Part shown: positions 6,747-41,129 of the stretch, in pieces
Numbering within the stretch: the first letter of the stretch is position 1
How the letters are laid out: each line of letters begins with the position of its first letter
Source: Dudresnaya verticillata
Taxonomy: Eukaryota
Length of the DNA stretch: 64,000 nucleotides
Direction: 5' to 3'
Assembly (NCBI GenBank): GCA_977862235.1
Contig: OZ374566.1
Location: forward strand, 1-64,000
Notes under the pieces: model-generated
Told to the model about the DNA's origin: nothing
The model's input: only the letters and a program-made list of their open reading frames with translations
Database searches by the model: none
Translations under genes and position numbers: made by a program

Positions 6747-6775
6747 ACACAACCGCGCTGCTACATTTCGCAGAC

Positions 6776-11574: not shown

Positions 11575-11984
11575 GTGGGTGTAACGGGTTGTTTGAGTCA
11601 AGTTATGAGTACACAATTTCAACTCACTAAACATGCTGTATAGCTGGTTTGGAGTTACGTCACATGCCTTAATCGCAGAGTTGTTTATGTCCATCTTTAT
11701 CCTTCAGCAAAAAATATGGTTCTAAACTGCTTTGCCACCAGTACACCCCCATTCGCAATGTTCTCCGTCCTGCCGATTGGACATTGTTTAGCATTACACA
11801 ATGAGTGACGCCTCGATTCTAATTCTCCTCGACGGACAAGCCACGAAAGATATTCAACACTGCCAGGGTGCTGCAAATATAGCTCCAAGTGAAACTTGAG
11901 GGGATCATCGAAAAAGAACCAGACCCCAAACGACAGACCGTTGCTTGTACTGACTCTGAATAGATTTTAGCGTACCAAGGCTTG

Positions 11985-14721: not shown

Positions 14722-15589
14722 TGTGGCATAGCTGTAAGACCAGCTGTGCCACGCACGTGCAGCTGTAAGACCAGCTCTGCCACGCACGCGCAGCTGTAAG
14801 ACCAGCTGCGCCACGTGTGCACTGCTGTGCGCACGCTGTCAGCCGGTGGTGCCGAAGCCCGCCTGAACTGTAAGGAAGTGCGTAGTGGCGCCAGCGTGCG
14901 CACGCGTACACGTGTGACACTGAAACTCCCATGTAATTTCTACGTTTATTGTTTTGTAGTGTACAGCACCGTCTAAGTGCAAGCGGCGGTCGAACGCCCT
15001 GCTGCCCTGCGCGCTGCGCGCACGCACTCCGGCGCAGAGCCGTTGAGTACGTGACACGCGCGCGCGCACTCCGGCGTCGAGCCGTTGAGTACGTGTGGAC
15101 CGTTTCGCCCACGCGCGCCCCCGGGTTTCCGATACCCGTACGCGTCGACGCGTGTTGGGGCGCGCCGGCGCACCTTCTGGGATGGTGCCGCCGCAGGCCC
15201 TGTAGTATATCTAGTAGTCGCCCCGCTGGGCTTCAGTAAACCAGGCAAGCCAGCCTACGCCAGGCTTGCCCTTTCTGCTTTGGGTTTCTTTCCCAGTCCT
15301 TCGCCCTACGGCTTCCCTCTTTCCCTAGCCGTCTAGGCTTTCCTTTTCCTTTCCCTACCGTCGGCTTCGTGCCGCCCCACGACGGGGGCGCAGGGATCCG
15401 GCCGCTGCCGCCCGCGTACGGTACGCCCCGTGCGCGCTCAGGCTTCGACGCCGTTGATCCGCGACCGTCGACGGCGCGCGCGGCCGACACCGCCGCTCTA
15501 CCACCACAGCTACCACCCTTCGACGGGTCTGGGTGCGACTGATCGACCAGCGCAGCTAGACGTCAGTTCGACCTGATGTCTATGCCACA
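14722..15589 (+). repeat. Gypsy-1 5' LTR (868 bp)
   Basis: TGTGGCATA...TATGCCACA terminal inverted repeat; near-identical to 27174-28114. Confidence 0.93.
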
Positions 15590-15590
15590 C

Positions 15591-15608
15591 TGGTCTCCCG
15601 ACCTAGAA
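15591..15608 (+). promoter_or_regulatory. Primer-binding site TGGTCTCCCGACCTAGAA (probably tRNA-Tyr)
   Basis: Starts with TGG 1 nt after the LTR; the same 18-mer occurs in Gypsy-2. Confidence 0.8.
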
Positions 15609-15735
15609 GTCGCAGAAGACCCTATCACCTCTCGCATCGACGCGATCGAGGCCAATAATTCCGCCGCTACCTACTTCGGCTGCTGCCGGTTCGGCAGACG
15701 CCGCGGCAGGTGAAGTTGGCGGTCGACACACTTCC

Positions 15736-17834
15736 TTGCTGAGTAACGTCGGCGTCTCAGGAGCTCCCCTAGAGGGACCGCGCATCGAGCGCTGGGCGGC
15801 TATTGCCAAGGCCCTAGGAGGGACAACGGTCTCTGCGACCGACTTCCAACTACTCTACGAGGAGACGATGGACTCACTTTCGGAAGTGTACGACACCGGC
15901 ATGGCCTCAGTCGCAGACGCGCGGGCACAAGGTCAACGTGACCTGGAGTCGCTTCGACGCGGAACCCTCGCCTCCGTCGAGGAAGGATTAACCCGAACTC
16001 AAGGGCTCCTCGACGAGCTACGTCAACGCGTTGAGTTGATTGAGCACGCACCGGCGCGGTATGACCGACGGGCGCCTAGCCCGTCGCCGGTGCGGAGCCG
16101 CCCTCCGCGATCGCCGTCTCAAGCGGATCCGGTTCGCGAACTGGCCAAAGCCCTCCTCGCTGAGCGTCATGCTCAGCGAAACCCCTTTTCTCCACCGGCC
16201 TCTCCGCCTAGGAGTGGGCAAGGGTCCCCTCGCCCTACAAGAGATGACGACCCCTTCTACGGGGTCGACCCCAAGCTACTACAACGCACTCTCGACGGGC
16301 GCGGAGTTGGAGGGGCGACTAGCCCCTCACCACACGAAGGTCCCGTGTCGGCCTACTGGCACTGGGGGCCATTGATGCCGGGCGTCGAGCCGCTGAGCAC
16401 CTTGGTCCCCGAATTCGCAAAGGCGATCGACTACCGCTCCTATCGTCTAGACGACATAAGACAGCGGGACAATCAGCAGCAAGTCTGCAATGGCAACACC
16501 GCCAAGATTGTCAGTCGGGTGAAGGCTCTCATGCCGCGGCTAGATCGCTACGACGGCAAGGAGCCCATCCGCTTGCTTGGCGTGCTTAGAGAGCTACGCC
16601 AAGCCTTCAACGGCGTCGGCCTGTCGGAAGGCGCAGCGGCGCGGGTGGTGTTCTGGTTACTAGACGGAACGGCATCCCAGGTGTATTCGAGTCACCTTTT
16701 CTCGGGGGTCCGGACGACTAGTCGCGGCACCCCCCCCCATGCTGGGCCTCGGTGATCAATACCCTCGTCGAGAGGTTCGTCACCGACGACGTGATCGCCG
16801 ACGCGCACGACCGACTGACCACCGCCCGGCAGCGGGACGCCGAGTCAGAACTCGAGTTCGCCTCTCGTCTAGAGGGCTACGCAGATGACTGTGCCGGCGT
16901 CTACTCCGACGAGAACCTGACGCACCAGTTCCTGCGTGGTCTGCTCCGACCACCCGACCCGCAGTAGCGGAGAAGGTAAGGCAGATGCCAATGGTCGAGC
17001 AGACCAACTTCAGTACCGTTCGTCGGATCGCCCACAGTGAGGGCACAACCTACCGCGCCCGCATGGCCAAGGCGTCGACGCCGGCCATCGTTTCGGGGCG
17101 CGGTAGGGGAAGCAGTTCGCCAAGCGGCCGCACACTGCTTATCGAGGCGCCACACACACCCGATAGGGAAGCGGCCTTCGACGGCACGATGTTGGTGGCG
17201 CCCGATGACGATGGTTTCGAACCCGTCATGGTCGTGCCCGCGCTATCGACAGCCAGGGCGGCGCAAACCGAGGAGACCCTCGACATCTCAGGACGCATCG
17301 ACGACGTCCTGCCTAGGAGGATCCCTCCACTCGCAAGAGGCAATGGCCCGCGCTGTCACCCCTGATCTACAGGGGTGGTACATCTGCTGGTTCTGTCGAG
17401 AACTTGGACACATCATGTACTCGTGCCCATTCCTGACTAAGTAACAGCAGTTGTACTGCGCGTATGCGAACTGCAACCATAGACTGGAGACGCAGCCGCA
17501 CGCGAACAACAACTTGCAGCAGCTCATCGACGAGCGCATGCTGGCAGACGCCAAGGCAAGTTACCCCGCAAGACGCTTCGACACGCAGCGGGGTGGGGCC
17601 CGACGCTTCGACGCGAGGGGTCCCCCGCAGCGCTTCGACTCGCAAAAGTATCGGGGGAGCCGCGACAGTACCGCGGGGATCGTCGAGATCCGCGCCGCGA
17701 ATACCGAAGGGCAGACGTCCCGCGGTTCCTCACTCGCGACAAGCGGGTCGGGTTTGACGACCAAGCCGGTCGCCAATCTCGGGCGTCGACGCCCTCGAGG
17801 CCCGACCCGCAGCGCGAACTGCTTCGGGCAGTGA
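15736..17834 (+). pseudogene. gag: Gypsy-1 gag, frameshifted
   Basis: DYRSYRLD motif, capsid-like YDGKEPIRLLGVL..., zinc knuckle CWFCRELGHIMYSC; split over several ORFs. Confidence 0.8.
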
Positions 17835-18324
17835 TGACCGTGCAGGAGCACACCGGGCTAGCAGCCGACGAGTGGCTCCCGCGAGCGCTCGACGCGCAGA
17901 GCAAGGGCGAGTCCACCCGGGGGCAGGTTGAGCAGCCCTCGCTCCTTTTTGACACGCCGCCGCGATCGACGCGAGGCGCCGGCCCGGCCCCTAGCCAGCC
18001 AATGGGATCCGAGGAAGATAGCTCGGATTCCGAAAATAATTTTGACCGGGTCGAACCGGAAAAGAGTAAAGGCGGCGCCGTTCGTGCGGTCGCGAGCACC
18101 GTCTCTCTCTACCACAGACCCACCATCCTCCGCCAAGCCGTCGATGGCCAGGACCCCCTCACCAAGCAGCGCTGAGGTACCCCTCCGGGAAGAGCCATCG
18201 AAAGCCACGCGCTCCAGGCCACCTTGGCCCCCGCGGCGTCGATGCAAGCGACAGGCACGACGCCGAGCGCGTAGGGATCCGTCGACGGATCCCGAGGCAC
18301 CCTCCGCTCGACGCGAAGGTGCCA

Positions 18325-21300
18325 TGGCTCACTGCGTCGACGCGGAGCCGGCCACTTCCCCAGACGGGTATGTGTGCCTCTTGTCCTCGGAGATATACCG
18401 CGTGTCTGGGTCGCTAGGCGCTGACCCAGGGGTAATGATACCCCACACCATTGCGGTGGACACCGGCTCCGGTTACAACCTCATCGCGAAGCGGGCGCTG
18501 CCGCCCGGATGGGATCAGCACGCGGCGGTGATGGAGTCGACTCCTCGCCTCGCCGGGGCTGATAAGACCCCACTGAGCCTATCAGGAGTAGCGCACCTCT
18601 CGATGAGGTTGGGGAACACGACGTTCCGCGTGCCATTCATAGTGGCAGACACCTTTGCCGTCGACGTCCTGGTGGGAACGCAGTTCCTCAATGCGCACGT
18701 GCGAGGCATCGACGTCGAATCGAAACGCCTATCGCTCCGACGCGGGGGCTCGGTGCCCCTCCTCAAGCGCAGTAGACCTGCCGAGGACCGCAAGCCGGCA
18801 TCGAAGCCGAAGAACCCGTCAACGGGTTTGTCGAGGAAGCACCAGAGGGAGCTCCTCGACTGGGATCACGACACCCACACCATCCGCCTCTCTAGGCAGA
18901 TGATGCTCCCAGCCTATTCCCAAAGGCTCGTCTCCGTGACGTCAGGAGCAAGTGGACTGATCCACACCGAACCCAAACCCTCGTTGCAGTCCCGCCACGG
19001 CGTGAGACTTACCAACGGGGTGCACGACGTCGAGTCGATGCGACCCTTCGGGGTCATCGTCGTGAACTTCACCGAAAAGCCTCGGACCCTGCCGAAGGGC
19101 ACCGTTGTCGGCTACGCGGTTAGGAACCCGGTGGCGCTGATAACTCCAGACCGCAAAGTCGCGGAGGAGTTTGGGCGGGTGATGAACATCACCACCCTAC
19201 CACCACGGGGGCAGAGGCCCCCGGTAAATCAGGATGCCGTGGAACCATCCACCTCGCCGTCGACGGCAAAGGGCACCGACGCCCAGCCGCTGCAGGGCGC
19301 AGCTACCGCCGCAGCGAAGGCCAACCCGTCCATCGAAGACTGGGAGTCGCAGGTCGATCTCTCGTCTATCGAAGACGAGGTGACCCGCAAGGAGGTCCTC
19401 TCCATGCTCAGGAAGCATCAGTCCATGTGGAACGGGAGGCTGGGCACTATTGCCACCACCAGACACCACATCGACGTGGAACGGGGCACTCGCCCCATCC
19501 GCTCCATGACCTACCGACAGGGCCCTGCCATGCGCAAGCTGGTGCAGGACGAGGTGGATACCATGCTTCGTGCAGGGGTTATCGAACCCGCCACCTCGGA
19601 ATGGGCATCACCAGTAGTCCTCGCGCCCAAGAAGGACGGCACACGTAGGTTTTGCGTGGACTATCGACTTGTCAACACGAAAACACTAAGTGATGCGTAC
19701 CCCCCTCCGAGGATGGACGACTGCATCGACAGTCTAGGCGACGCAGCCGTCTTCTCGACGTTGGACTGCAACGCGGGGTACTGGCAAATCCCTGTCGCAG
19801 AGGCTGACAGGGATAAGACAACGTTCACTTCGTTCTTAGGGACGTTTCGCTACTTGCGAATGCCCTTCGGGCTGAAGAACGCCCCCGCGACTTTCCAGCG
19901 GGCACTGGACATAATCCTCAGCGGAGTCCGATGGCAGTGTTGCCTGATCTATCTAGACGATGTGATCATTTTCTCGCGGTCGATCGCGGAGCACGTTGGT
20001 CATCTGGACCAAGTGCTGACTCTGTTGCACAAGGGAGGAGTATCCCTGAAACTGAAGAAGTGCCACTTCTTTCAGTCTCGCGTTGGCTATCTAGGCCACT
20101 TCATCGAACCGGGGAAGCTACGCATGGCGCAGACGAGCAGCGACGCTTTCCGCCATGCGCAGTTCCCGACCTCCCTGACTAAGGTGAGGTCGTTCCTCGA
20201 CGCGTGCAATGTCTATCGCCGCTTCGTGCGCAACTTCGCGAAGATCGCGCGTCCTCTGACGAACATGACCCGCAAAGACGCGGATGTGGATTTCGACAAT
20301 CCAAGCGCCGACGCGCTCGAGGCATATGAGACGCTCAGAGCGAAGCTCATATCGCCCCCTATCGTACGGCTCCCCAAGACGGGTAGACCCTACGTCCTCG
20401 ATACGGACGCATCGGCTTATCAGCTCGGATGCGCCCTACTGCAGGAACAGGAGGACGGCCAGCTACATCCAGTCGGGTACTGGTCCTACTCGCTCAACTC
20501 GGCGGAGCGCAATTACTCCGCCACTTAGCGTGAGTGCTTCGCAATGGTGTGGTCGATCACAACCCTGCGGCCCTACATCGAAGGCACGCGATTCACGGTT
20601 CGAACCGATCACGATGCGCTTCGATGGCTGATGTCGCTGACCAACTCTTCGGGTCGACTGACCCGGTGGCGCCTGCGGCTCGCGGAATTCGACTTCCAGA
20701 TCGAGTACCGCCCCGGGCGGGTACACCAAGTCCCGGATGCCCTGTCCCGCTTGGTTCGGCGCCAGCGAAAACAGGAGGAGGTTGACGACGACGTCCCTAC
20801 CTTTGACCCCCCGACGATCGACCGCCCGCAAGGGGAGTCCTCGGCTGAGACGCCGGTGGCACGCTCGGGTACAGAACCCGCGGCTCCCGTCTTGGTCATG
20901 ACACGCTCGCGGGCCAATGCATCTACGCGTTCGGCCCCAGCGCAGCCCATCCCGAAGCCAGTCCGGGGAAACAGCACCGGCACCGCGCCCAAGACGGTCG
21001 CGGCAGACGAACCCCCGGACTTGGCCGACGCAGCGGCGTGGGACGACACCGACGACTTCGACCTCTTCGATCTCCTCCGCGTCGACGCGAGAGATGAGCC
21101 ATCGGACTTGACGTCCGTGGCGCCAGTGAAGCTCCCTTCACCTATTTCCGTCGAGGAATTTGTGGACGCGCAGCGGCACGACTCCTGCCAGACCGTACTG
21201 GCCAGGCAGTCCCGTCGACGGGATAGCCATTTTTACGAGGACGGGGATGGGCTTCTATACCGCCATCATCCGGTCATAGCTTCGCTAGACCAGATAGTGG

Positions 21301-22656
21301 TGCCCGAGTCGTTACAGCCTCGGCTGCTCACGCTCGCGCACCACTCCCTCCTCGCGGGCCACCCAGGGCAGAACAAGATGTTCTATTCCCTGCGTGAGAC
21401 CTACTACTGGCCGCATATGGCGGCCAGCATCGCCATGACAGTAAGAAACTGCAGGCACTGTGCCCGTGACCGCATTCGACTGCGAAGACACCTTCATAGA
21501 CTGAAGCTGTTCCCGGGCACCAGGCCGCTGGAATCCGTCGCTATCGACATACTGGGCCCCTTGCCCAAGACCAAGTCTGGTCGCAAATTCCTCGTCGTCA
21601 TGACGGACCGCTTTACTAAGCTGACCAAGTCGCGCCTCTGCGCACCATTACGGCTTACAACGTCGCAGTTGTCTTCTGTGAACAGTGGGTCTTCCACTAC
21701 GGGCCCCCTAGGTCCTTGCTTTCCGATAACGGAAAGCAGTTCACATCGAAGTTCTTCCAAGCCATCTGCCGGTATTTCGGTTTGAACAACGTGTTCACCT
21801 CCGCGTATCATCCCCAGTCGAATGGACAGGCTGAACGCTACAACCGGACCGTCATAGCCATGTTGAGGAACTACGTCAACGATCACCAAAACGATTGGGA
21901 TCGATACGCCTCTGCGTTGATGTATTCCTACAACTGTCACGTGCACCGCTCGACGCGGACGACTCCATTCAGCTTAGTGCTGTCACGGCCTCCGCCGGAA
22001 TTTACTAAGTTCCACTCGGCGGTCGACCGCCCGAAACCTAGTGAGGATGTCCGAACGGACTTCCTCAAGCGGTTAGACACCGCTATGGGCCTGGCTTCGG
22101 CCGCCCTGGCCAAAACGCAGAGGCGTTATAAAAAGGACTTTGACCGACGGGTCCGGAAGGTCAACTCCCGCATCAAGGCCGGGGACTACGTCTTCATCGA
22201 CGCAACAGACGGGGTGACGAAACCACCGAAGTTGAAGAGCCCGGCCATCGGGCCTTATTGCGTGCTGCTCAACGACGAGCGCACGTTTTTATCGACAGAG
22301 ACGGCCTGGTCGAACGCATCGCAGCGGACCGAGCCGTCTTCTGTCCCCCGCCTCTGGGGGAAGATACTGCGCGTCGAAGCGCGTACTTGCCCACCGCCGA
22401 CGATCTCGCGTCCAAGGCCGTCGACGGCCCGCGGTTCGTGGTGGACAAGATGCTTGACCATGGCACGGCCGAAGACGGCACGCTGCTCTTCCAGGTCAAG
22501 TGTACCGGCTACTCTAAGCCGACTTGGGAACCTCGATCCCATTTGCCGGGGGAGATGGTGAGCCAATACTTCCGCGCGCAGAAGCGTCGGAAGGGCTCTT
22601 GGCTCGACGCCCCATCCCCTCCACTGACCCCCTCGGCGGGGGCGCCTCGTGCTTAA
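18325..22656 (+). pseudogene. pol: Gypsy-1 pol: protease, RT, RNase H, integrase, chromodomain; stop at about 20526 and frameshifts
   Basis: VDTGSG, RFCVDYR, YLDD, LDTDAS, GHPG...CRHC, IDILGP, SDNGKQF, AERYNR, FVVDKMLDH...TWEPRSHL. Confidence 0.93.
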
Positions 22657-24037
22657 GGAGGGGGCCCCAGTCATTCTTTGCCTGTTATTGCCCTCATCCA
22701 GGCATCCTTTGCCTTTTCAAGCGACGGGAACACGTGGGGCCTAAGCCCCACGACAAGGGCATGAATTGCGGCTGCCTAAGCCGGCGGCCCAAGCCGAAAG
22801 CACCCCGCCCCAATAGCCAAGGAGCAGGGGTGCTCTGCGAACTGCGCATCGCAGGGACTCTGGACACGACGTCTTTCGAAACTACCGGCTCGACGCCCGG
22901 CAGTAGCGACGTCCCGATACGCGAAAGACAACCCGCACCGTGGGGGGTTGTCTGGCCAACGCCGCCGCGAAGCCGCGCACAGGTGGCGAAGGGAAGGAGG
23001 CCCCCTTCTCCACCGCCATGCGGCAGCCCAGGCAAAAAACGAGCGTCGAAGCTCGACGCGACCCAGCTGGAGAAGCCACTGAGCCATCCCAGCCGAAGCG
23101 CCACCGAGGTCGACGTCAAGTGGCGGCGGCACGCAGATTGGCGAAGGGCAGGCGTCGACGCCCCCTTCGCCAACGCCGCGCCGCAGCCGCGCGTAATCTT
23201 CGGCCAACACCCACCGCCCTGGTGCCTAGCCGGGCGGGGTGCCAACGCGCACAGCCCCCACGTCGATGTGGGGCGCCAGAGCCAAGGAGGCTGGCGTCCG
23301 TCGAGCTTGCACCGCTGCGCTTCGACGCGTGAGCGGCACAACCACCTCGACGATGGGAAGACCGAGGGCACCGCGGCAGACGACCGGCCCCTGCCAAATA
23401 TAGGCGCGCGCTTACCCATATTTGGGACGCGTGCGCCCCACAAGCGCAGAGGCGCAGATTTGTGTTCAGGCTACAGTGTCTACTGTAGCCAAAACACAAA
23501 TAATTGGGAACGCCCAATGGGGTGCGACACCCCCGGGCCTCTGCCCACTCATCCAGGGGCATCGACGCCCCTGGCCGGGGGTTGGCTGCGCAAGCCGCCA
23601 CCACGCTCTTGGCCACTCCCCGGATCGGACCGCTTCGACGCGGTCCCCTCCGGCGCGCGAAGCGTCAAACGCCACTGGGGGCCCCCGCTCCGCGCTGGCG
23701 CTCCGCATCGACGCGGCGTTGCGCGCGCTGGCAGTCCCCTGTGTGGCGTCAACGCCGGCACTGCGGACCGCCACCCGCTTCGACGCGGGTCAGGCACAAT
23801 GGCACCCATGGTGAGGTGGGGCGTCGAAGCCCCACCACCTGCTACAGCGAGCATAGCTCGGACGCAGCCGCGCGGTCGAAGGCGCAGCTGTTGAAAACGC
23901 GTCGACGCGGACCGAAGTCTTCGCCCACCCCTTGCCCTTTAATGAACCAGACACGCAGAGGCGGTCTTAAAACTAGCGAGGCGATCGACCGTCCCTCGAA
24001 CTAGGATGGTTTTACAGCATAAGCCACTACGGCATAA

Positions 24038-26906
24038 CTACTGGGCGGCCTCGCCCCCAGGACCCACGCCGGGAAAGGCGGGCGCAGAGCCCGCTGCCCC
24101 CGGCGCCGCGGGAACATAGCCCTCAACCACAGTTGTGGTTGCCGCTGGCGCCGGTGGAAGACCCCCGGCGGGAAGCGGAGGCGCCGAGCCTCCATACACC
24201 ACTGCGCTCCCACCTATGGGAGCCGCAGGGCGATAAGGGCCCATCGACGGGCCCCTCACTTGCGGAAGAACCACTTGCTGTGGCACGACGCCTGCAGCAC
24301 TGGGCGGCGCGCCTGCGCCGCCCTGAGCGCCTGGGTACATCAGTTGCCCGGCGCCTTGCCAAGGGGCAACCGGGCCAGAAGGGCCCGGAGCGTACGACTG
24401 CATCGGCTGCATCGACGCATACGCCGTCGGGGGCGGCTGGTATTCCTCGGGCAGCCTCTTGCGCACCGGCGCATAAGACATGCGCTGGACTTCCCCGCGG
24501 AGCCTCTGCACCTCGCGGGAAAAGCCGTCCCGCTCGTCGCGGTATCGAACCGCAACGGCATTGGAGGCGTTGACGTCCTCCTGCAGCACCACTGCGCTCG
24601 ATGCCAGGGCCTGCAGGAGCGTGCGTGTCGATACGCCTTGCCCGACGCGCGCCAAGGAGGCCGCGCTGCGGACAGTCGGATCGGCCCAGACTGCCGCACT
24701 CACCGCCTCGTCCAGTGGGTCGACCACTGGAGGGGGTGGGACATAGGCCACCGCCGGCGACCCATACGGGGCCGGCGGGAGCTGGTACACCTCAACGGCA
24801 GCGGCCGGAGGGGCGCGGGCCATCGACGGCTCCGTGGCAGACGGTCCTCCAACTGCCGCAGGGGCGGCGGGCGCACAACGCGCGGAAGCCCTTGGGGGCG
24901 GCGGGATGTACGACTCGGTCTCCGCCGCCATGACGGCCGCGGCTGACCCAGGGTTAGCACCCACGCCACGACGGCGACGTCCGGCGCGCTCAGCGCGGGC
25001 CATGTCGGCCATCGAGGCGAACCCGGAGCGCTCGATGCGCTCCCGTCGGTCGCGCGTGCCCCGATTGCGCTGGATCTTATAGAGGGCCCCTGTCTCTGGC
25101 AAGAAGCCACACACGAACGCGTCGACGCGTGAAGAGAAGTGACGCCTCCGCGTGTGCTTCTCGGTTGCCGCAGCTACTCGGCGGACTGCGCTGAGCAGCT
25201 AGCCGAACCCAAACGACTTGCCATCCGAAGGACGGAGCAAGTCCGGGAAACACGGCCTCTCGCTTGACCAGCCGGTCGCGAGCAAATTGATCAGGCGGTC
25301 GTCGAAGACCCAGCCTGTCCCCTTCGCGAGGAGCTCGCTGCAGTAGCGGCGGCCCACCTCGAAGGCGTACTCATCTGAGCGCCTAGCCAGGAGCTCACGA
25401 CGAGCAGCTACGCGACCGACTGGTGCGTAGTGGAAATACCGGTCTACGGTTATCCACGGGATAGTGAATCCCGATGGCGTCTCACGGTGGGAGTACCACT
25501 CCGCCGATGGCAACCAGGCCGCATCGAGCGCCGGGTGCAACTTGCACCCCTTTGACGGGCGTCCTTCGCCCGGGGCCTTGCACACATCCCAGTCCCGCTC
25601 CCCGAAGCACACCCCAAAGAGGCGGCGCGCAGAGTCGGCATCGGCCAGACGGTGCGCGAGATCCACGGGCTCGTCTACGGGCACCGTGCGCATCTCTGGG
25701 ATGGTGGCAGGCAGGGGCGGGGCCCACTTATCGGCGGGTGTCAGGAAGAGGGCATCGGCTGCCCTGTCCACCCGCCGAAGCTCCTCAAGGGAGGCGACGT
25801 AAGAAACGTCGCAGGGTAACCCCAACGGCGTGAGCCAGACTATGGCGTCCGCTGGGAGGAAAGCGGCATAGGCTGCCGCCCCTCCGTCCAAGCTCGCGTG
25901 GGCCACCCTCAGGAGCCGCCGGACGTCTGCCCGAGGCTCCTGCAGCCCGCGCCACTGATCCAGCGGGATCTGGTGGCGCGGCACCCCCAGGCGAAGACCG
26001 TCTCGGTCGGGGGCGCGTGCGGTCCAGGGGGCGCCTGGCCCATGAGGGGCAGTCCGACTGAGACCGACACCCCAACAAGAGGCACGACGGGCGCAGCGGT
26101 GGACTCACCCACGCCCGCCGGCTCCCCCTCTGCGTTGGCAGACGCCACGGGAGACGGCGTCGGGGCCGTCGACGGCCCCATGCCAGCAGAATCGCGCGGC
26201 ACAAAGGGTGCCGCCGCTGCGGGGACTTTCCCCGATCCGGATGGCGTGGGCGACCTCGACGGACTCAGGTCGAGCACCCTCGCCACCATCGGCACCGCGG
26301 AGCGCGAAGGCTGCTCCGCGGGTGCCCCTCCTCGCGTCGACGCGGGTTGATTGCTGGGAGCCTTAGGCCCTGCGCGAGGTGGGCCAGTCGGCTGAAAGAC
26401 CCGAGCCGCCGCTACTGGGCGCGGGGCGGCAGAGGCCGCCCCACTCGGGTCCTTCACTCTCTTGCCCTGCGGCGCAGGGCAAGGGCCACCGCCTCTGACA
26501 AGACGTCAGCGGCGGGCGTTGGGGTGGGGTTGGCGTCGACGCCACCCGCCCCGGCGGAAGAAGCTGGCGCCGGAGCAGGCCCGGCCTTGCCCAGCGCACC
26601 CGTCGATGGGGGCGCTTCTTCTGGCGCAACCGTCCAAGGTTGCGCCTCTTCTGTAGCGACCATCGAAAGTCGCTCTGCGGTTGGCGCGGCCGTCGAAGGC
26701 CGCGCCTCCCCGCCCGCCGGCGCCTTTGGCACCGGATCGGCAGGCCCACCCCCTACGACTGACTCAGTCGAGGAGGTGGGCTTGGTAACCGGCGTCCCCT
26801 CGCGCGGGGGCGCCGTCCGCGATCGGTTCACGTGACTCCATCGCCGCGTCGACGCTGGCGATGGGGGAGGAGGTTGAGAGCGTCGAAAGCTTGGAGCGTA
26901 TGGCAC
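24038..26906 (-). pseudogene. Gypsy-1 antisense accessory ORF: Pro/Ala-rich N-terminus, unknown globular domain, coiled-coil and Pro-rich C-terminus; fragmented
   Basis: Four consecutive minus-strand ORFs (26454-26906, 25909-26457, 25199-25984, 24038-25114) between pol and the 3' LTR. The globular part aligns by eye with ORF 51942-54674. Confidence 0.6.
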
Positions 26907-27173
26907 TGGTCTACAGGCAGCCGTACGCGTGGGGAGGGAGTGTTGGTGGTCGTGGTGAGCGATGACCAGACCACCCCACCCCTCAGAGCCGCAGAGGCGG
27001 CTCTCTAAATAGCCCGTCGCGGCTCAGCGCGGGCACACCCGACGTGGCATCGACGCCCGTCACCGACGGACGTCCGGGGGGCCGCTGGCCAATCCCGGGC
27101 GCCGTATTGGCCACCCCACAGCGTGCGCGTCGTAACGGTCGCGACCGAGGCGTTCGCGCTTGAGGGGGTGTTG

Positions 27174-28114
27174 TGTGGCATAGCTGTAAGACCAGCTGTG
27201 CCACGCACGCGCAGCTGTAAGACCAGCTGCGCCACGTGTGCACTGCTGTGCGCACGCTGTCAGCCGGTGGCGCCGAAGCCCCGCTGAACTGTAAGGAAGT
27301 GCGCAGTGGCGCGTGCAGCTGTAAGACCAGCTGTGCCACGTGAGCCCTGCTGTGCGCGCGCTGTCAGCCGGTGGCGCCGAAGCCCCGCTGAACTGTAAGG
27401 ACGTGCGCAGTGGCGCCAGCGTGCGCACGCGTACACGTGTGGCACTGAAACTCCCATGTAATTTCTACGTTTATTGTTTTGTAGTGTACCGCACTGTCTA
27501 AGTGTAAGCGGCGGTCGAACGCCCTGCTGTCCTGCGCGCGGCCCGCACGCACTCCGGCGCAGAGCCGTTGAGTGCGTGACACGCGCGCGCGCACTCCGGC
27601 GTCGAGCCGTTGAGTACGTGTGGACCGTTTCGCCCACGCGCGCCCCCGGGTTGCCGTTACCCGTACGCGTCGACGCGTGTTGGGGCGCGCCGGCGCACCT
27701 CCCGGATTGGTGCCGCCGCAGGCCCTTTAGTATATCTAGTAGTCGCCCCTCCAGGCTTCAGTAAACCAGGCAAGCCAGCCTACGCCAGGCTTGCCCTTTC
27801 TGCTTTGGGTTTCTTTCCCAGTCCTTCGCCGTACGGCTTCCCTCTTTCCCTAGCCGTCTAGGCTTTCCTTTTCCTTTCCCTACTGTCGGCTTCGTGCCGC
27901 CCCACGACGGGGACGCAGGTATCCGGCCGCTGCCGCCCGCGTACGGTACGCCCCGTGCGCGCTCAGGCTTCGACGCCGCTGATCCGCGACCGTCGACGGC
28001 GCGCGCGGCCGACACCGCCGCTCTACCACCACAGCTACCACCCTTCGACGGGTCTGGATGCGACTGATAGACCAGCGCAGCTAGACGTCAGTTCGACCTG
28101 ACGTCTATGCCACA
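27174..28114 (+). repeat. Gypsy-1 3' LTR (941 bp)
   Basis: TGTGGCATA...TATGCCACA; differs from the 5' LTR in the number of CTGTAAG-containing subrepeats. Confidence 0.93.
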
Positions 28115-28649
28115 ATATTAATATATACCCCGGGACTCTGAGAAGAATAATGAGACCGAGGAATTTTCCTGTACCGTCGCGGAAGGGGCCGTTCTTGGCC
28201 CAAACGTGATGGGGCGGCCACCCATGGCAAGAAAAAGGCGTGTCCCTCCCGGAAAGGTCGACGACGAACACCGTTACAGTGGCTGACGGGGTGTTCAGAG
28301 CGATTTCCGTGACGGAAGAGTGCCGCATAAGCGGTGGAACCTGGGCAGAGTACGCCGGCTGCGATATTGCGGAAAAACGAGAGTACCGTTTCGGGAAATG
28401 GGTCGCGTCTTCAGCAGGGTACGCGACCCACGCTGGCAAAATCCGTGACGGAGCGGTATGCCCCAGTTTGAGCAACAACGAAATCCCGTAACGGTAGCAG
28501 GCGTCGACAAGACGCAGTTCCCGTAACCGGGTCGCCACATCGCGGGGAGTTGCGATTACCGCAAGCGACAGTAGCTTGTTTTCCGTTACGGTTAGCGGCG
28601 TACCTTGGCTGGGCGTCGCAGTGGCTTTCCCTTAGCGGAGCTCTTGCCT

Positions 28650-31600
28650 TTTTGCTTTCAATAGCGGTAGATGAAGTTCTGCGGCAATTCCTCGGCGGGT
28701 TCGTAGGTATCCTGATCCGGAGGGTAGCCTTACCAGCGGACTTTGTACGTCATCCCAGTAGGTTCGTCGCGGTGACCGACAATCTTGTCGATCACATATT
28801 CCGTATCGGCTTGTAGTGGTTCCGTCGCGGAGGGAGTAGTACCTTCAGAAGGAGATACTACTGTAGTACCTTCTGGATGTGGCACTACTTCTCCGTAGAC
28901 GGTTGATGGCATGACAGGCGGCACTAGTAAGGGTGCCAGCTGAACCGCAACTCCGATCGGAACCTTCGTGATGCGATCGATACTTACGGGAATCAATACC
29001 CCTTCCTTTCGGATTGTGACAACATGTTCTGTTGCGGATTCCACTTCATGAGGCCCCGTGGCTCTCGGAAGGAGTTTCTTCATTTCCTGAGCCACCTCGC
29101 CCACATCATCCGGTTTGCCTTCCAATCGGTCCCGTTCACGGCGTTCGGCAGGCCGCAAGTTATGGGGCGGCCTGTCGACATAGACTTGATCTCCGTTACG
29201 GATTATGGGCCTAAAGCGCACCTTACGGTCAAACAGTGCCTTGGCTTTTTGCTGAGCCACTGTTTGCTTCGTGCGCGCTGTTTGGAGCGCATACCGTAAA
29301 TGGCGCATGGTGCTCCGCTTCTGTAGCACCGGGGTCATACCCCCTTCCGTAACGGTTTCTTGATGCTCGACAGGAGCCCCTCGTACAACAATGTCCGATG
29401 GGTGGTGTGTCAGCACCAAATCAAATGGCGTTGTTTCCGTAATACGGTGTACCTGCATGTTGTACGCATATGTCAACGGTTGCAGGTACAGATCCCAATC
29501 GGAGTGATGATCCTCAACGTAATGGCGCAAACGCTGAGCGATTGTCTTATTAAATCGCTCAGCTTGCCCATTTGTCTGCGGATGGTAGGCAGCGGTGAGC
29601 AGGTGCCTGACTCCAGTAAGGAACACACCGTATCGAAGAACTTAGCAGTAAACTGCGGTCCGTTATCGGTTAGGACAAATTGGGGTGCGCCGTAGGCGTA
29701 CACCCCAAAGTCCAGAAAGGCGTTAGCCACCACAACGGCTGTTGTTGTCCGTAACGGAATACAGCGCGTCAGCTTAGAGAACCGATCGGTTATTACCAAA
29801 ACGTAGACATGACCCCGTTTTGTCTTCGGAAGTGGCCCGAGAATGTCTATAGCGACAAACTCCAAAGGTCCGCTAGCGGGGAAGAGTTTCATAAACCTTT
29901 GATTCCGAAAGCGGGTTCCCTTTGTCTTCTCGCAGGAGCGACATGTCCGAACGGATTCAAATACATCGTTGGCCATATGAGGCCAATAATAATCCTGTCG
30001 GAGTGTGTAATACATCTTAATTCCGCCTGGGTGACCCGACATCAGGGTGTAGTGGGATAAATACAATACCCGTCCACGGAGTTCGCTTGGTACCACCTTC
30101 TGCAGAGCACCATCCAATTGGGACGTGCGCACCAAGAATCCGTTACGGTCATAGTCAAACTGGGATCCAGGGGAGCCTACCGTATCGGCTTTGAGACGAC
30201 AGAAAGGGTCTCTGGCTTGCCCTTCGAGGAACTCCTCCCTGGTAATTGTCTCATCCTTGACGTCGGATTCTTGGATTACAGTAAACCGTGACGGTATTGC
30301 GTCGGGCTTGTCGGGGGAGGCGGATGCACTCCCACTGGCGGGCTCCACGGCGCATATTACGTTATTTTCCGTAGCGGTTTCTTGTGATGTGGCCCAATCG
30401 GTTAAATATACTCCATGCTCATATAACCCGTCGACGGTGTTTTCGGCGACAAAGCAAGGTATTTCTTCATCCAAAGGTCTATCGTCACCGCCATCCGTTC
30501 GGAGTCGCGACATCCCATCGGCGAGTTGATGCTTAATTCCAGGACGGTATTGCACCTCGAATTCAAATTCCGATAGGCGGAGCCTCCACCTGGCTAGGCG
30601 GCCAGATGAGCCTGCGAGGTTCAGGATCCACCGCAGGGTATCGTGATCCGTTCGGAGAATAAACTTATCACCGTAAAGGTAGGGTCGGAGTGTTAACATG
30701 CTCCAGACCACGGCTAGGCATTCCTTTTCGGTTGTCGTATAGTTTTTCTCCGCATCGGTGAGGCTTCGGCTCTAGTATCCAATAGGGAGGTGATCGCCAT
30801 TCGGTTGTTCCTGCAGAAGTACACAGCCAACTTGGTGGTCACATGCGTCAGTGTCCAACGTATATTTATTTCCGTGACGGGGTAGAGCCAATATAGGTGA
30901 AGAGATAAAGCGTCTCTTCAGTTCCTCGAAGGCTTCATATTCCGTATCGGATAATATTCCAAACTCAAAGGGTGAGCCCTTGCCGGTTTTCTTATTTAGC
31001 GGTGCTGAAATCCGAGCGAAGTTGGGTACAAAGCGACGATACACGTTGCACATTCCCAAGAAGGATCGCAATTCCGTCTGGTTAGTCGGCGGCTTCGCGA
31101 CCTTAACGGATTGGATATTCCGATTATCCACTTCTAATTTTCCGGGACGGATAACATGCCCTAGGTATTGTACAGACGCGTTGAAGAAGTCACACTTTGA
31201 AAATTTCAACGTTACCCCAGCAGATCGTAAAAGCGTAAGGACTTCCTTCAGGTGGTGGAAATGTTCCGTAACGGTTTTTGAGTAGACAATTACGTCGTCT
31301 AGGTAGACGAGGGCAAATTGCCATTTAACCGTAGAAAGGATTATATCCACTGCCCGTTGGAAGGTTGCCGGTGCATTTTTCAATCCGAATGGCATTCTCC
31401 GAAAACGGTATACGCCAAAATGGCTAGTAAAGGTAGTTTTGTCCCTTTCCTCTTCCGGAATCTCGACTTGCCAATATCCGCTATTGCAATCCAGGGTGGT
31501 AAATACAGTAGCTTCCCCAAGGGAATCTATGCCCTCATCCATCCTGGGTAAGGGCTATGAGTCCCTAACCGTTACTGAATTGAGCCTTCTATAGTCAGCA

Positions 31601-32852
31601 CAGAACCGCATGGTGCCGTCCTTTTTTGGAACGAAAACCACGGGGCTGGCCCACTCCGATGAGGCTGGTTCAATTACCTTAGCGGAAAGCATGCGATCGA
31701 TCTCTGTCTTTTCGATATCTCGCTGCTTATGTCCGGCACGGCATGGAGCTTGATATACTGGCTTCGCTCCGGGAGTTAACTCGATGCGGTGCTTGGCAGC
31801 TGTAATGTTGCCAAGATCGCCACTCCACATCGATTTATATTCCTCGAGTAGGGTTAAAATCCGTTTGCGGAGCGATGCTTCTTCTGTGCCGATCTGGACT
31901 TGATCCTTCCAGTCGGTAGTATTTGTATTTTCCGTTACGGGGCTGCTTACTTCCTTGTCGTGGGGGGAGATACTGCTGGCCTTTTCGGAGGTAGGGTTAG
32001 AATTAAATGATTGAATAATTCCTCCCCCTCCTTAAATGGAGGTATACCGTTGACGGTAAAAATAGCAGAAGGGGCAGCAGTAGCGAGGCCCACGACAGTA
32101 TATTTGGGCGACCGTACCGGCTTGTTAGAAACATTAGAGACCCAGATCCGAAACGGTTTGTTAGGTACAATATCCATAATACCATTAGCCATTAACGTGA
32201 GGTGCTTAAAAGCCGGCTTAGGATGATTTTGTAGAAAGCATAACCCACCCGTGGGGGTATTAACCGTTACGGTGGTTTGCGTCATAGGGGGAATAAGGGT
32301 AGATTTGGCTAAACGAATTTTCTGAGAAACCGTAGCGGCAGAAAGAGGTGAGGGCTGTAGGGTGGCAGTGGGTCCCGTCTTCGGAATTTTGGCTTGACCA
32401 ACAAGGGATACCGGTGGGTAATGATGAAAAACAACTTTCCGTAACGGAGGGAGGATTGCCTTCACGTAGATGAAGGTAATTCCCAAAATACAGGGAGCCG
32501 CCAAGTTCGCGACCACTAGAAAATGGACGCGAGCACGGAGCTCTCCGATACGGACGAAAAGTTGGATCTGACCAAGAGGGCGTATAGCGCGATTAGACGC
32601 ATCCCATAATGGAGGACTGGTTGCTGGGCGTATGAGTGGGAGCCATTGGCGCGGAAGGCGCCTGGCACTAATGAGATTGGGCCCAGCGCCAGAGTCCAAG
32701 ACGGAGATTAAAGGAAGCATCACGCTATCTGTCCGTCCCACGGTAATTTGCATCTTGTAATTTTGATGTTGCATAAAGAAGACAGTATCATTAGTCTGAT
32801 AAGCCAATGGGAGTTCCGTAACGGTATCTCGCCGATCCCCTGGCGGGTCCAC
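28650..32852 (-). pseudogene. pol: Gypsy-2 pol (PR, RT, RH, IN, chromodomain) with several stops and frameshifts
   Basis: LDSGAG, RFCADYR, YLDD, LDTDAC, GHPG...CRSC, TDNGPQF, AERFNK, EYVIDKIVGH...YKVRW. Confidence 0.93.
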
Positions 32853-32896
32853 ACTCGCGAGAGGTGGAAAGCCGTGAGGCGGGGATGGCGGCGCCC

Positions 32897-35376
32897 TTAC
32901 GCATCCCCCCTTGAGTTTTCCGAATTCAAGGTTGCACCAGTCGGATCCGCCTCCATGGGCTCGCGCAATTCTGCGATTTCCACTCCGTCATGGTCCTCCA
33001 CCGATAGTATCGGGGCATTCCGTTGCGGAGGGGGCGTATGCGGCTTGCCCCGATTCCCTTGCGGATTCGAACTGGTTCCTACTACGAACCTGCGACCTAC
33101 AGGGTAGTGCTTCTGGAAGTTGCGCTCTCGCTCTTCCACAAGCCTAACCCGATCGGAGTCATGTATCCATGGGCAGACAACGTGCTCTGGCGAAAGGCAG
33201 ATGCGACAGTTACCACTTCCGTAAAGGCGTCGGACCCGAGGATCCGACTCATCCCGTAGCGGAGGAGCTGGTTGCTGCTGTCCTCGCCCATCGTGGGCAT
33301 TATTTCCGTGACGGTGACTCGGCTGCTGTTGGGGGCCAGGAGCCGGGCGAGATCCACCATAGGGGGGACCTTGCCTGCGTGGCATCCTGGGCGGAGTAGG
33401 GTGGACGCTTTGCGGGGGCGAGGAGTACGGGGTAGAAAAGGTAAACCCCGTGCTCGTACCCGTAGCGGCACCGTGGCCTCCCTCGACGGCTAGCACCTGA
33501 TTATCCGTAGCGGAAAGATTCCCTTGCGACTCATAGTGTACATCCGATACGGAATCCAGCGACAACACCTTAGACGGGCGCGCTTTAGTGCGCCCATCAA
33601 AGATGTGAGCCGGAACGGTTTGGCGTTGAGCTACCCGATGGGACTGACCCAGACCAGTCGCATAGCGAGTGATGGCCTGATAATCCAACTGGGAATGCGT
33701 CGCCAGATAATTTCTCATCTGTTGACGAGTACCCGGTAGGAGTCCTTCAACGAACAGTGACTTCAATGCCCGATCGGAAAATACTGTACCGCAACGGAGA
33801 GCCTTGGCCCAGAGCTGGTTCGAGAACTGCTCTTCCGTCATGGTGGATGTTTGCCTGAAGTTGCTGACATCCGTATAGGCTTCAGCAATCACTTCATCCG
33901 TAGCGTAGGTTCTCAATAAAAGTTCACCACCTCGGAATATGTGCGGAGCATCTCGGCCTGCTCCACGTCAACCGCCATGGTACCTCCAGCAAGCCTAGCC
34001 TGTAGAAGGGCTTCGGCCTGTCCTTTAAGGAAAAACTGGAAGCACCAGACGGCAACCCCTTCGGCGATGCCGTTGATGTTACAACCGTCACGGAATTTAG
34101 CGAGAAATCCCAAGACGGTAATAGGGTCCGTCCCATCGAATGTATGGGAGGACATCTGGACGTCGAGTTTCTTCCGTATACGGCTCATGTTTTGTGAGAA
34201 CTTAGAGCCGTATGTCTTACTCCTCTTATCCAATCGGTAGGTGCGGTAGTCCAGCGCCTTGACAAACTTGTCATGTAGCGGCCGGATTACCTTCACCTTT
34301 CCGGATTTGGCACCGTGTTTTCTGGCCCGGTGCCTATTCTCTCTATCCGTTACGGAAGAACTCTCTGAGTCTGAATCCGTAGAGATAGAGGAGTCATGCC
34401 TTTTTTCGCGTTTCCGCGATCTTCTGTTTCTCCTCTTACGGCGGCGGTGTTGGCTATCCTCTGAGCTGCTCTCATTGGATTCCATACCGGATTGGTGGTG
34501 TCGTCGCTGGGTGTGGTCGCCCATGTGCGACCGACGGGGAGGGTCAGAGCGGGAGTGTCGGGCATCTCGTTTATGCCGACCTCGACCGGTCCTCCGACTC
34601 GGATGGGGTGAGCTGGACGCATCGCTGAGATGGTCGCTGCCTCCACCTGATCGAACCGGAACGGTATAGCGCTCTTGCTGATAGCGCCCTGGCGTAGGCA
34701 CATCTACGTGTCCAGGAGAATACCGTAACGGTGGCTGAGTGTTTGTTGGTCCCGTAGGGGCTTGTTGATGTTGAGAATCCGTTACCGGAGCCGGTGGCAG
34801 TGGCCCAGAGGGTACTGTGCCCGGCGGAAATCCCATAACGGGGGGTTGTTGCGGCTGCTGCGTTCTTCCCTCGACCGGGAATTCATTCCATAACGGTGGT
34901 TGCTCAGTGAAAGCTTCCGTAGCGGGAGGCCTTGCCATGCCGGGAGCAATCTGGCTCTCGAGCTCGGCGGCCACCTTTTCCTGTAGGATCAAAGCTTGCA
35001 CTATCCGAGGAAGGTGCTGCTCCAGATAGGAATTAACCAAAGACGGAACCGTTTCCGAGAGGGATATCTCCACCTCTTTTACCATTCCAGGTTGTACTTC
35101 CAATCGGAGATGCTCTAACACCCTGAGAAGGACCTCCGACAGGACCCAGTGGACCCGATGGGATTACGGCTTGGGTTGCGGAGCTGCCTTCTTCGAGGCG
35201 TCTGATCCGACACGGGAACGGGGAGCTTTACCAGCAGCACCCTTTAGGATGTCTTCTGGGTTCTCCACTCCGGAACGGATTTCACCTCCTTCACTGCGTA
35301 GACTGCGCGCAGTGGGGGTAGTGTCACCCGCTTTAGGTCCCGTAACGGGAGGGTCTGCGTGTTCTTCGTTCTGCAT
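32897..35376 (-). pseudogene. gag: Gypsy-2 gag, frameshifted
   Basis: DYRTYRLD, FDGTDPITVLGFL, degenerate knuckle CRICLSPEHVVC. Confidence 0.82.
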
Positions 35377-35501
35377 GATACCTTAACGGAACACAACGGT
35401 TGTTCTTGCTTGTCTATCCAATATTCCGTAACGGGTTGTCGGTACAGCCGAATTCCTACTGTAGCGGATTTCGACGGCTGTTTCTGCCAACCGTGACGGT
35501 G

Positions 35502-35519
35502 TTCTAGGTCGGGAGACCA
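35502..35519 (-). promoter_or_regulatory. Gypsy-2 primer-binding site TGGTCTCCCGACCTAGAA
   Basis: Reverse complement lies 5 nt inside the LTR boundary; identical to the Gypsy-1 PBS. Confidence 0.8.
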
Positions 35520-35524
35520 AAAGA

Positions 35525-36199
35525 TGTGGTGTAGTGAAAACCCACGAACTCCGAGACGGACAGCTGGCCTGACTTTCCTTAACGGACGAGAGCAACACTA
35601 CCTCCACGGGGTGGTAGAGCAGTTCGCACCGAGACGGGAGAACAGCGAGCGGCTAACCGAGACGGATATTGGGAAGCAACAGACAAGGGGGTGGTACAAG
35701 TGCCGGGACGGACTCCGTAACGGTGGTGGTGGTAGACCGCAACGGGCCCGGCGCGGGGAAAACCGTAAAGGATTGGGCTAAGGTTGCTTACCCGTTTACC
35801 TTAGGAGCCGCTGCGGTGCCGCCCTGATATACAAGTCAGGGTGGCACCGAGCGGTCCGGTCCGTGGGGGCCAGACCCTAGTGGTCTGGTCCTATGGTGGA
35901 ATCGGCCCTGCTGGTCCCAATCTCCGACACGGACATGCGCAGCATTCTCATTGGCTGGCGCGCTACTCTACACACTTTGCACAGACTCACTAAAAATAAA
36001 GAATAAATACTACAAATACTCCGATATGGTTGGTGCGCTTCACTGTTGTACAGCAATGCGTACCGGCGTACAGCAATGCGTACGACATCCGACACGGTTA
36101 CACGTTGCCAGATCATCAGCGTGGCGTATTGCCACATCACCCGTTACGGTTGGCTCGCCGTCGGCGTGCCGCGTGCGCGCCACGGCTCACTTCACCACA
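35525..36199 (-). repeat. Gypsy-2 5' LTR (675 bp)
   Basis: TGTGGTGTAG...CTTCACCACA imperfect terminal inverted repeat adjacent to the PBS. Confidence 0.75.
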
Positions 36200-40245: not shown

Positions 40246-40780
40246 AGGTGCAGACCACGGGTGACTGGAAAATGGCTGAGTCGTGCGGTACTTCCAACGT
40301 TACAACTGGAAGTACCGCTCCCATTGCGGAGTTCGGACGCGGCACTACGAGGTCAGTTTTGATTTCAGCAATAATTTTCCCCGTTCCCAGGCATTTAAAT
40401 TGAATGCTGAAAATTACCACAGAAATTAGTCGTCTCTATGTGCCAGAAACACTACTTCAGACCAAACATATTACCTACATATGGCAATACCTGTTTTGAT
40501 TCGTGGACCGTTCCTTTCCGTGATGGAGATCACGAGCTTTCACTGGATCCAGTTACTAATTTACGTTGTGTTAGCACGATTCGAGGGTGGCCAGACTCTC
40601 CACACTGCCGCACACCCGCGGACGGGCACGCGGCAGCTGCCGCGTGCCAGTTACGTGCCCGCTACCATCGACGAGCGTCTCAACCCCTATCGGGGATTCA
40701 TCGCCCCCCGTATTGTACCACTCTGCTCAACCTGGCCACCGCGCGCGAAGAGCGGACATGCGCGCGGTGGCCCGCTTAAG

Positions 40781-40970
40781 CGACGAGTGTCAAATCGCTC
40801 CCGGTTGGGCCTCCATCACACTATCTCGCCAACTTCACCCACGCGGGCGTGCCTACGCTTCTCCCCACTCTACGAGCGACGACGAGCGTCACATCGCCCC
40901 CGGTTGGGCCTACATCACACTATCTAGCCAACTTCACCCATGCGGGCGTGCCTACGCTTCGCCCCACTCG
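40781..40970. repeat. 2 x ~99-bp duplication
   Basis: CGACGAG.GTCA.ATCGC.CCCGGTTGGGCCT.CATCACACTATCT at 40781 and 40880. Confidence 0.85.
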
Positions 40971-41129
40971 GCGAGCGGCACAGCATCTATATAGATGCTG
41001 TGCAGTTCGCGGGCGCGCGTATATATACAAGATTGTACTGAAGTATATATTCGCGCGCGCGAACTGCCAAAGTCGCTCCCGTGCTCTTTGGCAAACCGAG
41101 TACTATTTCGGCGCTTTAGTTAGTCTTTA

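Follow-up and report, generated by a model that had tools for sequence, protein, structure and literature searches.

Why should one retrotransposon carry the same short palindrome twenty times over, inside as well as outside its coding frames? The question is raised by a 64,000-nucleotide stretch of Dudresnaya verticillata (Eukaryota; GCA_977862235.1, contig OZ374566.1, positions 1 to 64,000; hereafter the window), in which the long terminal repeat (LTR) element Gypsy-1 occupies positions 14722-28114 and was described in an earlier note, made from the sequence alone, as bearing 20 perfect copies of the 8-mer CGTCGACG, taken there as a fixed, family-specific signature. The analysis reported here shows a real, lineage-specific signature that is coded in structure, as a short constant core between arms that vary freely and pair with each other, and that is probably common to transposons of different classes together with an unclassified gene; its function is putative. 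Tentatively, with a confidence that falls just short of even, the dispersed sites are interpreted as selected DNA stem-loop self-tags that would be read by an element-encoded accessory protein, with escape from silencing as their likely purpose.

Every one of the 20 coordinates reported earlier for perfect CGTCGACG copies in 14722-28114 is exact. The window contains 24 matches, 20 of them inside Gypsy-1, where 1.53 are expected for the whole window, and 18 of the 20 are independent (two are LTR duplicates). The numbers expected in Gypsy-1 under Markov models of orders 0-6 are 0.48, 0.84, 1.37, 5.3, 9.6, 12.0 and 15.6; the 16 internal copies exceed all 150 simulations at each of orders 1-4, and are absorbed at orders 5-6 (10.2 ± 3.1 and 11.7 ± 3.5). 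For the bare 8-mer the test at orders 5-6 is circular, since these models are trained on the motif's own sub-words.

As a description of the signature the fixed word proves incomplete. The palindrome itself is real, but its position 2/7 is nearly free (37 of the 53 one-mismatch sites change this same position), and its flanks co-vary: at the 18 perfect sites, flank positions 1-3 are complementary at frequencies of 0.94, 0.83 and 0.56, compared with 0.50, 0.38 and 0.24 after permutation of left against right flanks, with complementarity at position 4 at background. Arm pairing occurs also at the 35 C[ACT]TCGACG one-mismatch sites in Gypsy-1, and none beyond chance is found at 36 words of this type elsewhere in the window. 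The unit (tag site) is thus a core GTCGAN/NTCGAC with 3-4 bp of free complementary arms, and a perfect CGTCGACG arises where both strands fulfil the core requirement; the minor cores, G[TC]C[GT]A and AG[AC]G, show the same behavior as GTCGAN. In 14722-27173, 54 of 110 cores are armed. Their arm triplets comprise 22 distinct words among 54, with 19.3 expected for independent positions, and because this diversity matches independence the arms are not a mix of a few words; a mixture of few fixed palindromes is accordingly rejected. When all loop words are taken together, a set chosen post hoc, the sites are more evenly spaced than random (P 0.0007).

Armed cores resist the null models at every order, including those that absorb the bare word. 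In the internal part of Gypsy-1, cores with 3-bp complementary arms number 48, against at most 4.9 expected (maximum 10) under Markov orders 1-6, so that the higher-order Markov model envisaged earlier as a refutation leaves armed cores unexplained at every order. Within the open reading frames (ORFs) of Gypsy-1 the motif occurs 27 times against 6.3 by synonymous-codon permutation (maximum 14 of 2000), sites with arms of 2+ bp 19 times against 1.4, and inverted repeats (arms 5+ bp, loops 3-8) 175 times against 84 ± 10; the in-ORF motif sites occupy all three reading frames, and mirror and direct repeats in these ORFs show no excess over the codon-permutation null. As a separate observation, the ORFs of Gypsy-1 and its neighbor Gypsy-2 display a slight excess, so far unexplained, of complementary 4-mers in the same direction (356 versus 287 ± 19 and 174 versus 129 ± 13, respectively), which is smaller at 5-mers and is accompanied by a deficit of short direct repeats.

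Gypsy-1 is a decayed Ty3/Gypsy element, and its two LTRs, primer-binding site (PBS) and pol order fit this assignment. Its features are as follows.

14722..15589, plus strand: 5' LTR (TG...CA), carrying 2 perfect CGTCGACG sites as well as repeated hairpins whose loop is TAAGAC
15591..15608, plus strand: PBS, 18 nt identical to the PBS of Gypsy-2; presumably tRNA-Tyr-like by the C1-G72/A73 identity rule
15607..17500, plus strand: gag-like region of several broken frames, weakly similar to gag of Gypsy-2 and relatives
18372..22290, plus strand: pol, with protease (weak), reverse transcriptase (RT), RNase H and integrase; its frame is broken by a stop and by frameshifts, and its coding frames contain tag sites
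22435..22569, plus strand: chromodomain-like integrase C-terminus (Pfam Chromo E 0.00096, 19.5 bits, below the 25.1 cut-off)
22657..24037, no strand: non-coding spacer with the highest tag-site density (the 22-24 kb bin holds 13 armed cores)
24038..26903, minus strand: antisense accessory ORF, interrupted by a stop and by what look like frameshifts; ~24950-25990 encodes a conserved domain of no known family
27174..28114, plus strand: 3' LTR, without target-site duplication relative to the 5' flank
14722..28114, no strand: the dispersed tag sites, with major and minor cores as given above

The domain order is protease-RT-RNase H-integrase, the aspartic protease match being weak (E ~0.1). The chromodomain-like region is conserved in relatives; the RT trees were built from Gypsy-1 and its relatives, with no named chromovirus references among them. 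The LTR pair differs at 36 of 801 aligned bases, and the region from pol to the 3' LTR, which holds the long antisense ORF, spans 4.5 kb. Comparison of the flanks for a target-site duplication shows that they differ, and a rearrangement after insertion is likely because Gypsy-2 is cut off at the 3' LTR of Gypsy-1. The frames assigned to the gag start and to two N-terminal accessory pieces are guesses.

Two neighboring elements carry codes of their own.

28115..36199, minus strand: Gypsy-2, with one LTR (36199-35524), cut off at the 3' LTR of Gypsy-1; fixed-type palindrome CCGTNACGG
40500..56500, no strand: RT-free element, with cores GAGC/GCTC/GATC/GCGC and 3-bp free complementary arms (74 sites)
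47198..49549, minus strand: transposase-like ORF of 783 aa in the RT-free element (Pfam Plavaka, PF18759, E 0.014, 15.1 bits, below the 26.3 cut-off)
51936..54674, plus strand: open 912-codon ORF in the RT-free element, a profile-level homologue of the Gypsy-1 antisense accessory domain, which spans about residues 290-630 here
41130-43082 (minus), 43774-46012 (plus) and 49550-51202 (minus): uncharacterised ORFs of the RT-free element

Site density per 2 kb is 6-13 for the Gypsy-1 type (14-28 kb), 10-17 for the Gypsy-2 type (28-36 kb) and 7-12 for the third type (40-56 kb), and each code drops to 0-3 per 2 kb outside its own element. Family restriction of the signature, anticipated by the earlier note, is therefore seen directly in three adjacent elements with mutually exclusive codes that end at element borders; no hairpin or palindrome code was found in the hAT element or the other window segments. 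In Gypsy-2, CCGTNACGG has 69 sites at up to 1 mismatch, with A/T-rich flanks and in all reading frames. The view that two adjacent elements with the same PBS each have their own palindrome stands as regards the 18-nt PBS, but the site types differ in kind, those of Gypsy-2 being without arm co-variation. Gypsy-2 is also without its 3' part, where an accessory gene would lie.

The RT-free element repeats the design of Gypsy-1. Its ORFs contain 51 tag sites against 4.2 by codon permutation (maximum 13 of 1000), and its sites are more evenly spaced than random (coefficient of variation 0.70 versus 0.98, P 0.0008). Searches of 40.5-56.5 kb by tblastn with the RT, integrase and gag of Gypsy-1 gave no match, and no Pfam RT was found in its ORFs; no terminal inverted repeats of at least 10 bp were found between the candidate end zones, and the ends were not found. 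It is likely a Plavaka/CACTA-type DNA transposon. It has no core protein in common with Gypsy-1, but the accessory domain is common to both. The presence of the same design in an element of this kind argues against RT errors and against RNA packaging as the origin of the sites.

The wider distribution was evaluated in metagenome, viral and metagenome-assembled genome (MAG) contigs (81 loci and 21 further loci, designated by L numbers), with hairpin excess ratios computed on whole loci, flanks included, and trees taken from quick IQ-TREE runs without bootstrap, one of which used 38 chosen rows. By RT subclade, the hairpin excess is 1.2-2.2 in A, 1.7-2.9 in B, 1.9-3.4 in C and 1.6-2.1 in D, but 0.9-1.5 in E and 0.7-1.3 in F; it is 1.35-3.2 in the ten closest loci of at least 2.5 kb (L082-L091, 57-65% RT identity). 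A core word reaches p <1e-5, against the sequence's own arm rate, in 16 of the 93 sequences of at least 4 kb (best null 1e-3.1, 24 simulations); these 16 include seven of the nine closest loci, and also an AT repeat (L063). The sisters of Gypsy-1 use related core words (NYCGAA in L085, GCGAA in L083, CGAG in L084), the next clade has TGAA/AGAA (L088, L089), AGCAA and GGCA (L090), and subclade D has GAGTY. Lineage-specific motif turnover, as proposed earlier, is borne out in that relatives carry other core words, similar among sister taxa. A CpG-rich palindrome as the rule is contradicted by cores such as TGAA, AGCAA and GAGC, and mimicry of CpG or methylation sites is likewise rejected as a general rule (observed/expected CpG is ~1.0-1.1, and the cores of some relatives are CpG-free). 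In L088-L091 the arms are ~4 bp long, with C predominating at the outer position (p from 1e-7 to 3e-12). The eukaryote-type Gypsy contigs L082-L092 are placed inside bacterial MAGs, which likely reflects host contamination.

Scans for fixed words had first suggested that the trait is rare, as they find a strong palindrome only in Gypsy-1, Gypsy-2 and L031 among sequences of at least 3 kb; this impression was overturned by arm-aware scans. Subclade F (L009, L011, L012, L032, L046, L060) has a weak fixed palindrome, CCNCGNGG, with 20-43 sites per locus, compared with 2-7 per locus in L019, L036, L053 and Gypsy-2, and in subclade E neither hairpin excess nor a fixed palindrome was detected. Four distant Gypsy loci (L061, L074, L062, L072; ~41% RT identity) show a hairpin excess of 2.2-2.7 or enriched words, among them a CGAAAG core and CGTGAG/TCACG, and similar codes may exist outside this clade.

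A candidate partner for the tags is the antisense accessory ORF, which is fast-evolving and clade-wide. Translated with its stop read as X, the Gypsy-1 copy has 8 homologues among 1.84 billion representatives, none of them named and none with a family match above cut-off. A profile of these homologues, run against 9821 open stretches from 103 sources, matches the 51936-54674 ORF of the RT-free element (E 5e-11), and hhalign aligns the Gypsy-1 accessory domain to this ORF with probability 95% over 229 columns. Iterating the profile recovers antisense ORFs lying beyond pol in L088, L091 and subclades B-F; the best reversed decoy scores E 0.008. The closest relatives of Gypsy-1 are contigs too short to span the accessory ORF, and Gypsy-1 is without a close copy. 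Word-index searches restricted to longer proteins gave no match to the domain, which is weak evidence. In the ESM Atlas a glycosyltransferase-6 hit (0.90) was not accepted, with only 129 of 256 features shared, and the sequence P0122 gave no usable match. Structure prediction indicates a mostly helical domain (two AlphaFold models, pLDDT 61 and 66). Foldseek finds no match for either model, and a wide comparison, made with the first model only, gives a best VIA Z of 5.1 at rmsd 10.6.

In the mechanism proposed here, the family-specific core with its paired arms would mark the element's own copies, the antisense-encoded protein would read these tags, probably as small DNA stem-loops, and their reading would likely keep the copies out of host silencing, by analogy with the VANC proteins discussed below. 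Selection for binding is suggested by four features of the sites, namely the sharp arm length, the outer C-G pair conserved in one clade, compensatory single-pair changes, and even spacing. Copying could not have created the conserved outer C of L088-L091. The further steps, that the accessory protein is the reader, that an extruded hairpin is the form seen and that anti-silencing is the outcome, are put forward more weakly and lean on analogy; the accessory ORF is proposed as reader because it is the only gene found common to Gypsy-1 and the RT-free element. A bolder generalization, which we regard as doubtful, is that a mobile, fast-evolving protein of new fold in red-algal transposable elements (TEs) of different classes recognizes its own element via a DNA shape code, in which a family-specific loop word would sit on a short stem whose paired sequence is free. 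With only the loop fixed, such tags could be packed densely into coding sequence and re-keyed by a change of a few loop bases. If true, each family would hold a private licence against host silencing, in a structure-read self/non-self system without described counterpart in eukaryotic transposons.

Several results weigh against this interpretation. The Gypsy-1 8-mer alone and the 6-nt cores alone do not show even spacing. Arms of 3-4 bp are barely stable by themselves (-1.1 to -1.6 kcal/mol), and extrusion would therefore need protein or single-stranded DNA. The signal of compensatory change is weak in subclades A (13%) and B2 (11%), and the pair counts are not independent. Arm co-variation is absent from the CCGTNACGG sites of Gypsy-2 and from the CCNCGNGG sites of subclade F. 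The homology between the accessory ORFs of Gypsy-1 and the transposon appears on profiles only (pairwise BLASTP E 0.098, not significant), and the joint occurrence of accessory domain and tags across TE classes is one example. Subclade E carries the accessory domain without detectable tags, and subclade A shows hairpin excess with its own antisense ORF unmatched. No match to the domain is found in Pfam, PHROG or PDB, and no DNA-binding fold is recognizable.

That the DNA structures are selected but have another reader, such as a chromatin or transcription factor of the host or one of the element's core proteins (integrase, transposase, Gag), is unlikely, although this is the alternative that best survives. 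It would accommodate the imperfect match between accessory gene and tags in subclades E and A, and transposases are reported to be able to activate cognate copies sequence-specifically (preprint 10.64898/2026.08.24.746577). A single host factor, however, would not yield three exclusive codes in adjacent elements, and Gypsy-1 and the RT-free element, though without a common core protein, both carry the accessory domain.

It is quite unlikely that only the core is selected, as an ordinary protein-binding or modification site, with the arms left as scars of fold-back template-switching repair. Template switching is able to generate perfect stems and to preserve them (PMC8794818), and would give perfect, strand-symmetric arms without G-T excess, as observed here; core words alone are also only mildly enriched (196 versus 166-168 in the RT-free element, 97 versus 87-88 in L089). 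Against it, the signature of multi-base template switches on one arm was looked for between relatives and rejected, no excess of such blocks being found (same-arm share 0.37-0.43 in subclades A-D versus 0.44 by chance). The conservation of the outer C-G pair and the sharpness of arm length are likewise unaccounted for, and in Gypsy-2, from the same genome, palindromic cores have acquired no arms. Between relatives in subclades A-D, though not in E/F, the stems are more conserved than loops and flanks, an observation that establishes no more than the ancestral origin of the stems. Facing compensatory changes are elevated in C (37/116, 32%) and D (58/239, 24%), less so in B1 (39/227), and stand at 13% in the tag-free E/F.

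RNA packaging signals classically combine a constant loop with a variable paired stem, and RNA stem-loops, acting in packaging or dimerisation or as shields against small-RNA silencing, were considered as the selected form; this we judge very unlikely. Gypsy-1 does fold more strongly than shuffles, but its sense and antisense strands fold alike. Asymmetric cores are equally frequent on the two strands (11/13 in Gypsy-1, 10/10 in L089, 13/14 in L031, 7/5 in L085), whatever the gene direction. G-T mismatches are not in excess over A-C mismatches, either in total (635 versus 715 in 31 hairpin-rich loci; 36 versus 52 in Gypsy-1) or when oriented by core or loop (33 versus 33), although L031 and L045 lean to G-T (12 versus 4). 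The GNRA-like loops of subclade B1 would also suit RNA, but B1 loops are GNYA as well as GNRA and occur on both strands, and an RNA wobble or GNRA signal is rejected on these grounds. The design of the RT-free element points the same way, and if that element is a DNA transposon the RNA explanation is already largely refuted. The loop preference of B1 (L004, L005, L008, L010, L021, L049, L067, L068) is for G-N-N-A on both strands (85 versus 35 and 65 versus 35 expected).

A neutral by-product, from snap-back errors of a lineage-specific RT or from composition at third codon positions (GC3) and codons, is hardly credible: hairpin excess does follow RT subclades, in-frame sites often encode a hydrophobic residue plus Asp and Markov orders 5-6 absorb the bare 8-mer, but codon-permutation and Markov nulls fail for armed sites (composition or codon bias being rejected and, as an explanation, effectively refuted), sites lie in all three frames, the RT-free element has the same design, and GTCGA itself is strongly enriched in Gypsy-1 (135 versus 37-56 expected).

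For self-tags read by an element-encoded protein, the nearest described system is VANC, the anti-silencing proteins of Arabidopsis VANDAL (Mutator-like) transposons, which act on family-specific target motifs (PMC5735166). Both systems have a fast-evolving accessory gene encoded by the element beyond its transposition genes, and, inside the element, short family-specific motifs that differ between related families. As described, VANC proteins bind their targets as double-stranded DNA sequence, and these targets are fixed words of 8-9 nt, not palindromic (YAGTATTAY, AGTTGTCC), that lie in non-coding tandem repeats (PMC5735166). The Gypsy-1 sites are instead dispersed, lie in coding frames and consist of a core with free complementary arms; anti-silencing is suggested here by analogy, and Pfam scans show no similarity of the accessory protein to VANC.

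In red algae, Plavaka accessory genes (PAG1-3) are reported to be mobile among TE families, with PAG3 located beside tandem arrays of inverted repeats to which self-binding is proposed, and PAG1 without a detected domain (10.1101/2025.02.11.637652). The Gypsy-1 accessory protein resembles PAG1 in having no detected domain and in being encoded by a red-algal gene common to TE families; it may be PAG1, to which it is likened by description only. The Gypsy-1 sites differ from the PAG3 arrays in being dispersed inside genes with variable arms, and the main text of that report describes no antisense PAG genes in Gypsy elements. Retand/Tat Gypsy elements of plants, in which antisense TRP28 ORFs occupy the interval from pol to the 3' LTR (PMC11963269), resemble Gypsy-1 in the length of this region, in a conserved antisense ORF that may serve in DNA binding, and in family-specific repeats. 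Whereas Gypsy-1 is a candidate chromovirus, Retand belongs to a non-chromovirus lineage; its repeats form tandem arrays, and TRP28 (PF04195) is not matched by the Gypsy-1 accessory domain.

More distant parallels exist among prokaryotes. Integron attC sites, REP/TnpA-REP hairpins and the hairpin promoters of phage N4 are single-stranded DNA hairpins with a variable stem and few fixed bases; they have longer stems, discrete sites and unrelated proteins, whereas the Gypsy-1 sites carpet genes. Cyanobacterial HIP1 is a short palindrome over-represented in all reading frames, as are the Gypsy-1 sites, but it is a fixed word, genome-wide and without co-varying arms, unlike the element-specific, co-varying sites of Gypsy-1. 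No description of such sites was found in a literature search whose coverage stopped short of most subscription journals, Repbase reports and the supplements of the Bostrychia study.

Transposon self-marking and escape from silencing are known in detail for very few systems, and TE silencing in red seaweeds is stated to be unexplored (10.1101/2025.02.11.637652). The mark described here can be read from sequence alone, is family-specific, and probably crosses the divide between retrotransposons and DNA transposons with one uncharacterised gene. The interpretation as self-tags predicts that binding should require the core together with arms that pair, whatever the sequence of those arms; the window holds both an open copy of the candidate gene and the 74 sites predicted for it, making a direct test possible. 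Most such codes would escape standard motif finders, since the arms vary, and a scan for cores with paired arms could reveal them in other genomes.

The window as a whole is a subtelomere packed with TEs, and its positions 1-850 are a telomere built of TTTAGGGG units. The red alga Bostrychia is reported to have a related unit, TTTTTAGGGG (10.1101/2025.02.11.637652), which makes a red-algal host likely. A 763-codon ORF at 2697-4988 (minus strand) has a weak tyrosine-recombinase match (PF00589 E 0.023) and possibly belongs to a Crypton-like element; the hAT transposon remnant (PF05699) used as a control lies at 6700-11600. Downstream of Gypsy-2, a DEAD/DEAH helicase fragment at 36770-37642 (plus strand) adjoins tandem arrays at 37950-40300 with spacings of 28, 58, 208 and 559 bp. 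Beyond the RT-free element, 46-bp and 12-bp tandem arrays are found at 56750-58750, and a 757-codon open frame at 61729-63999 (minus strand) runs past the window end.

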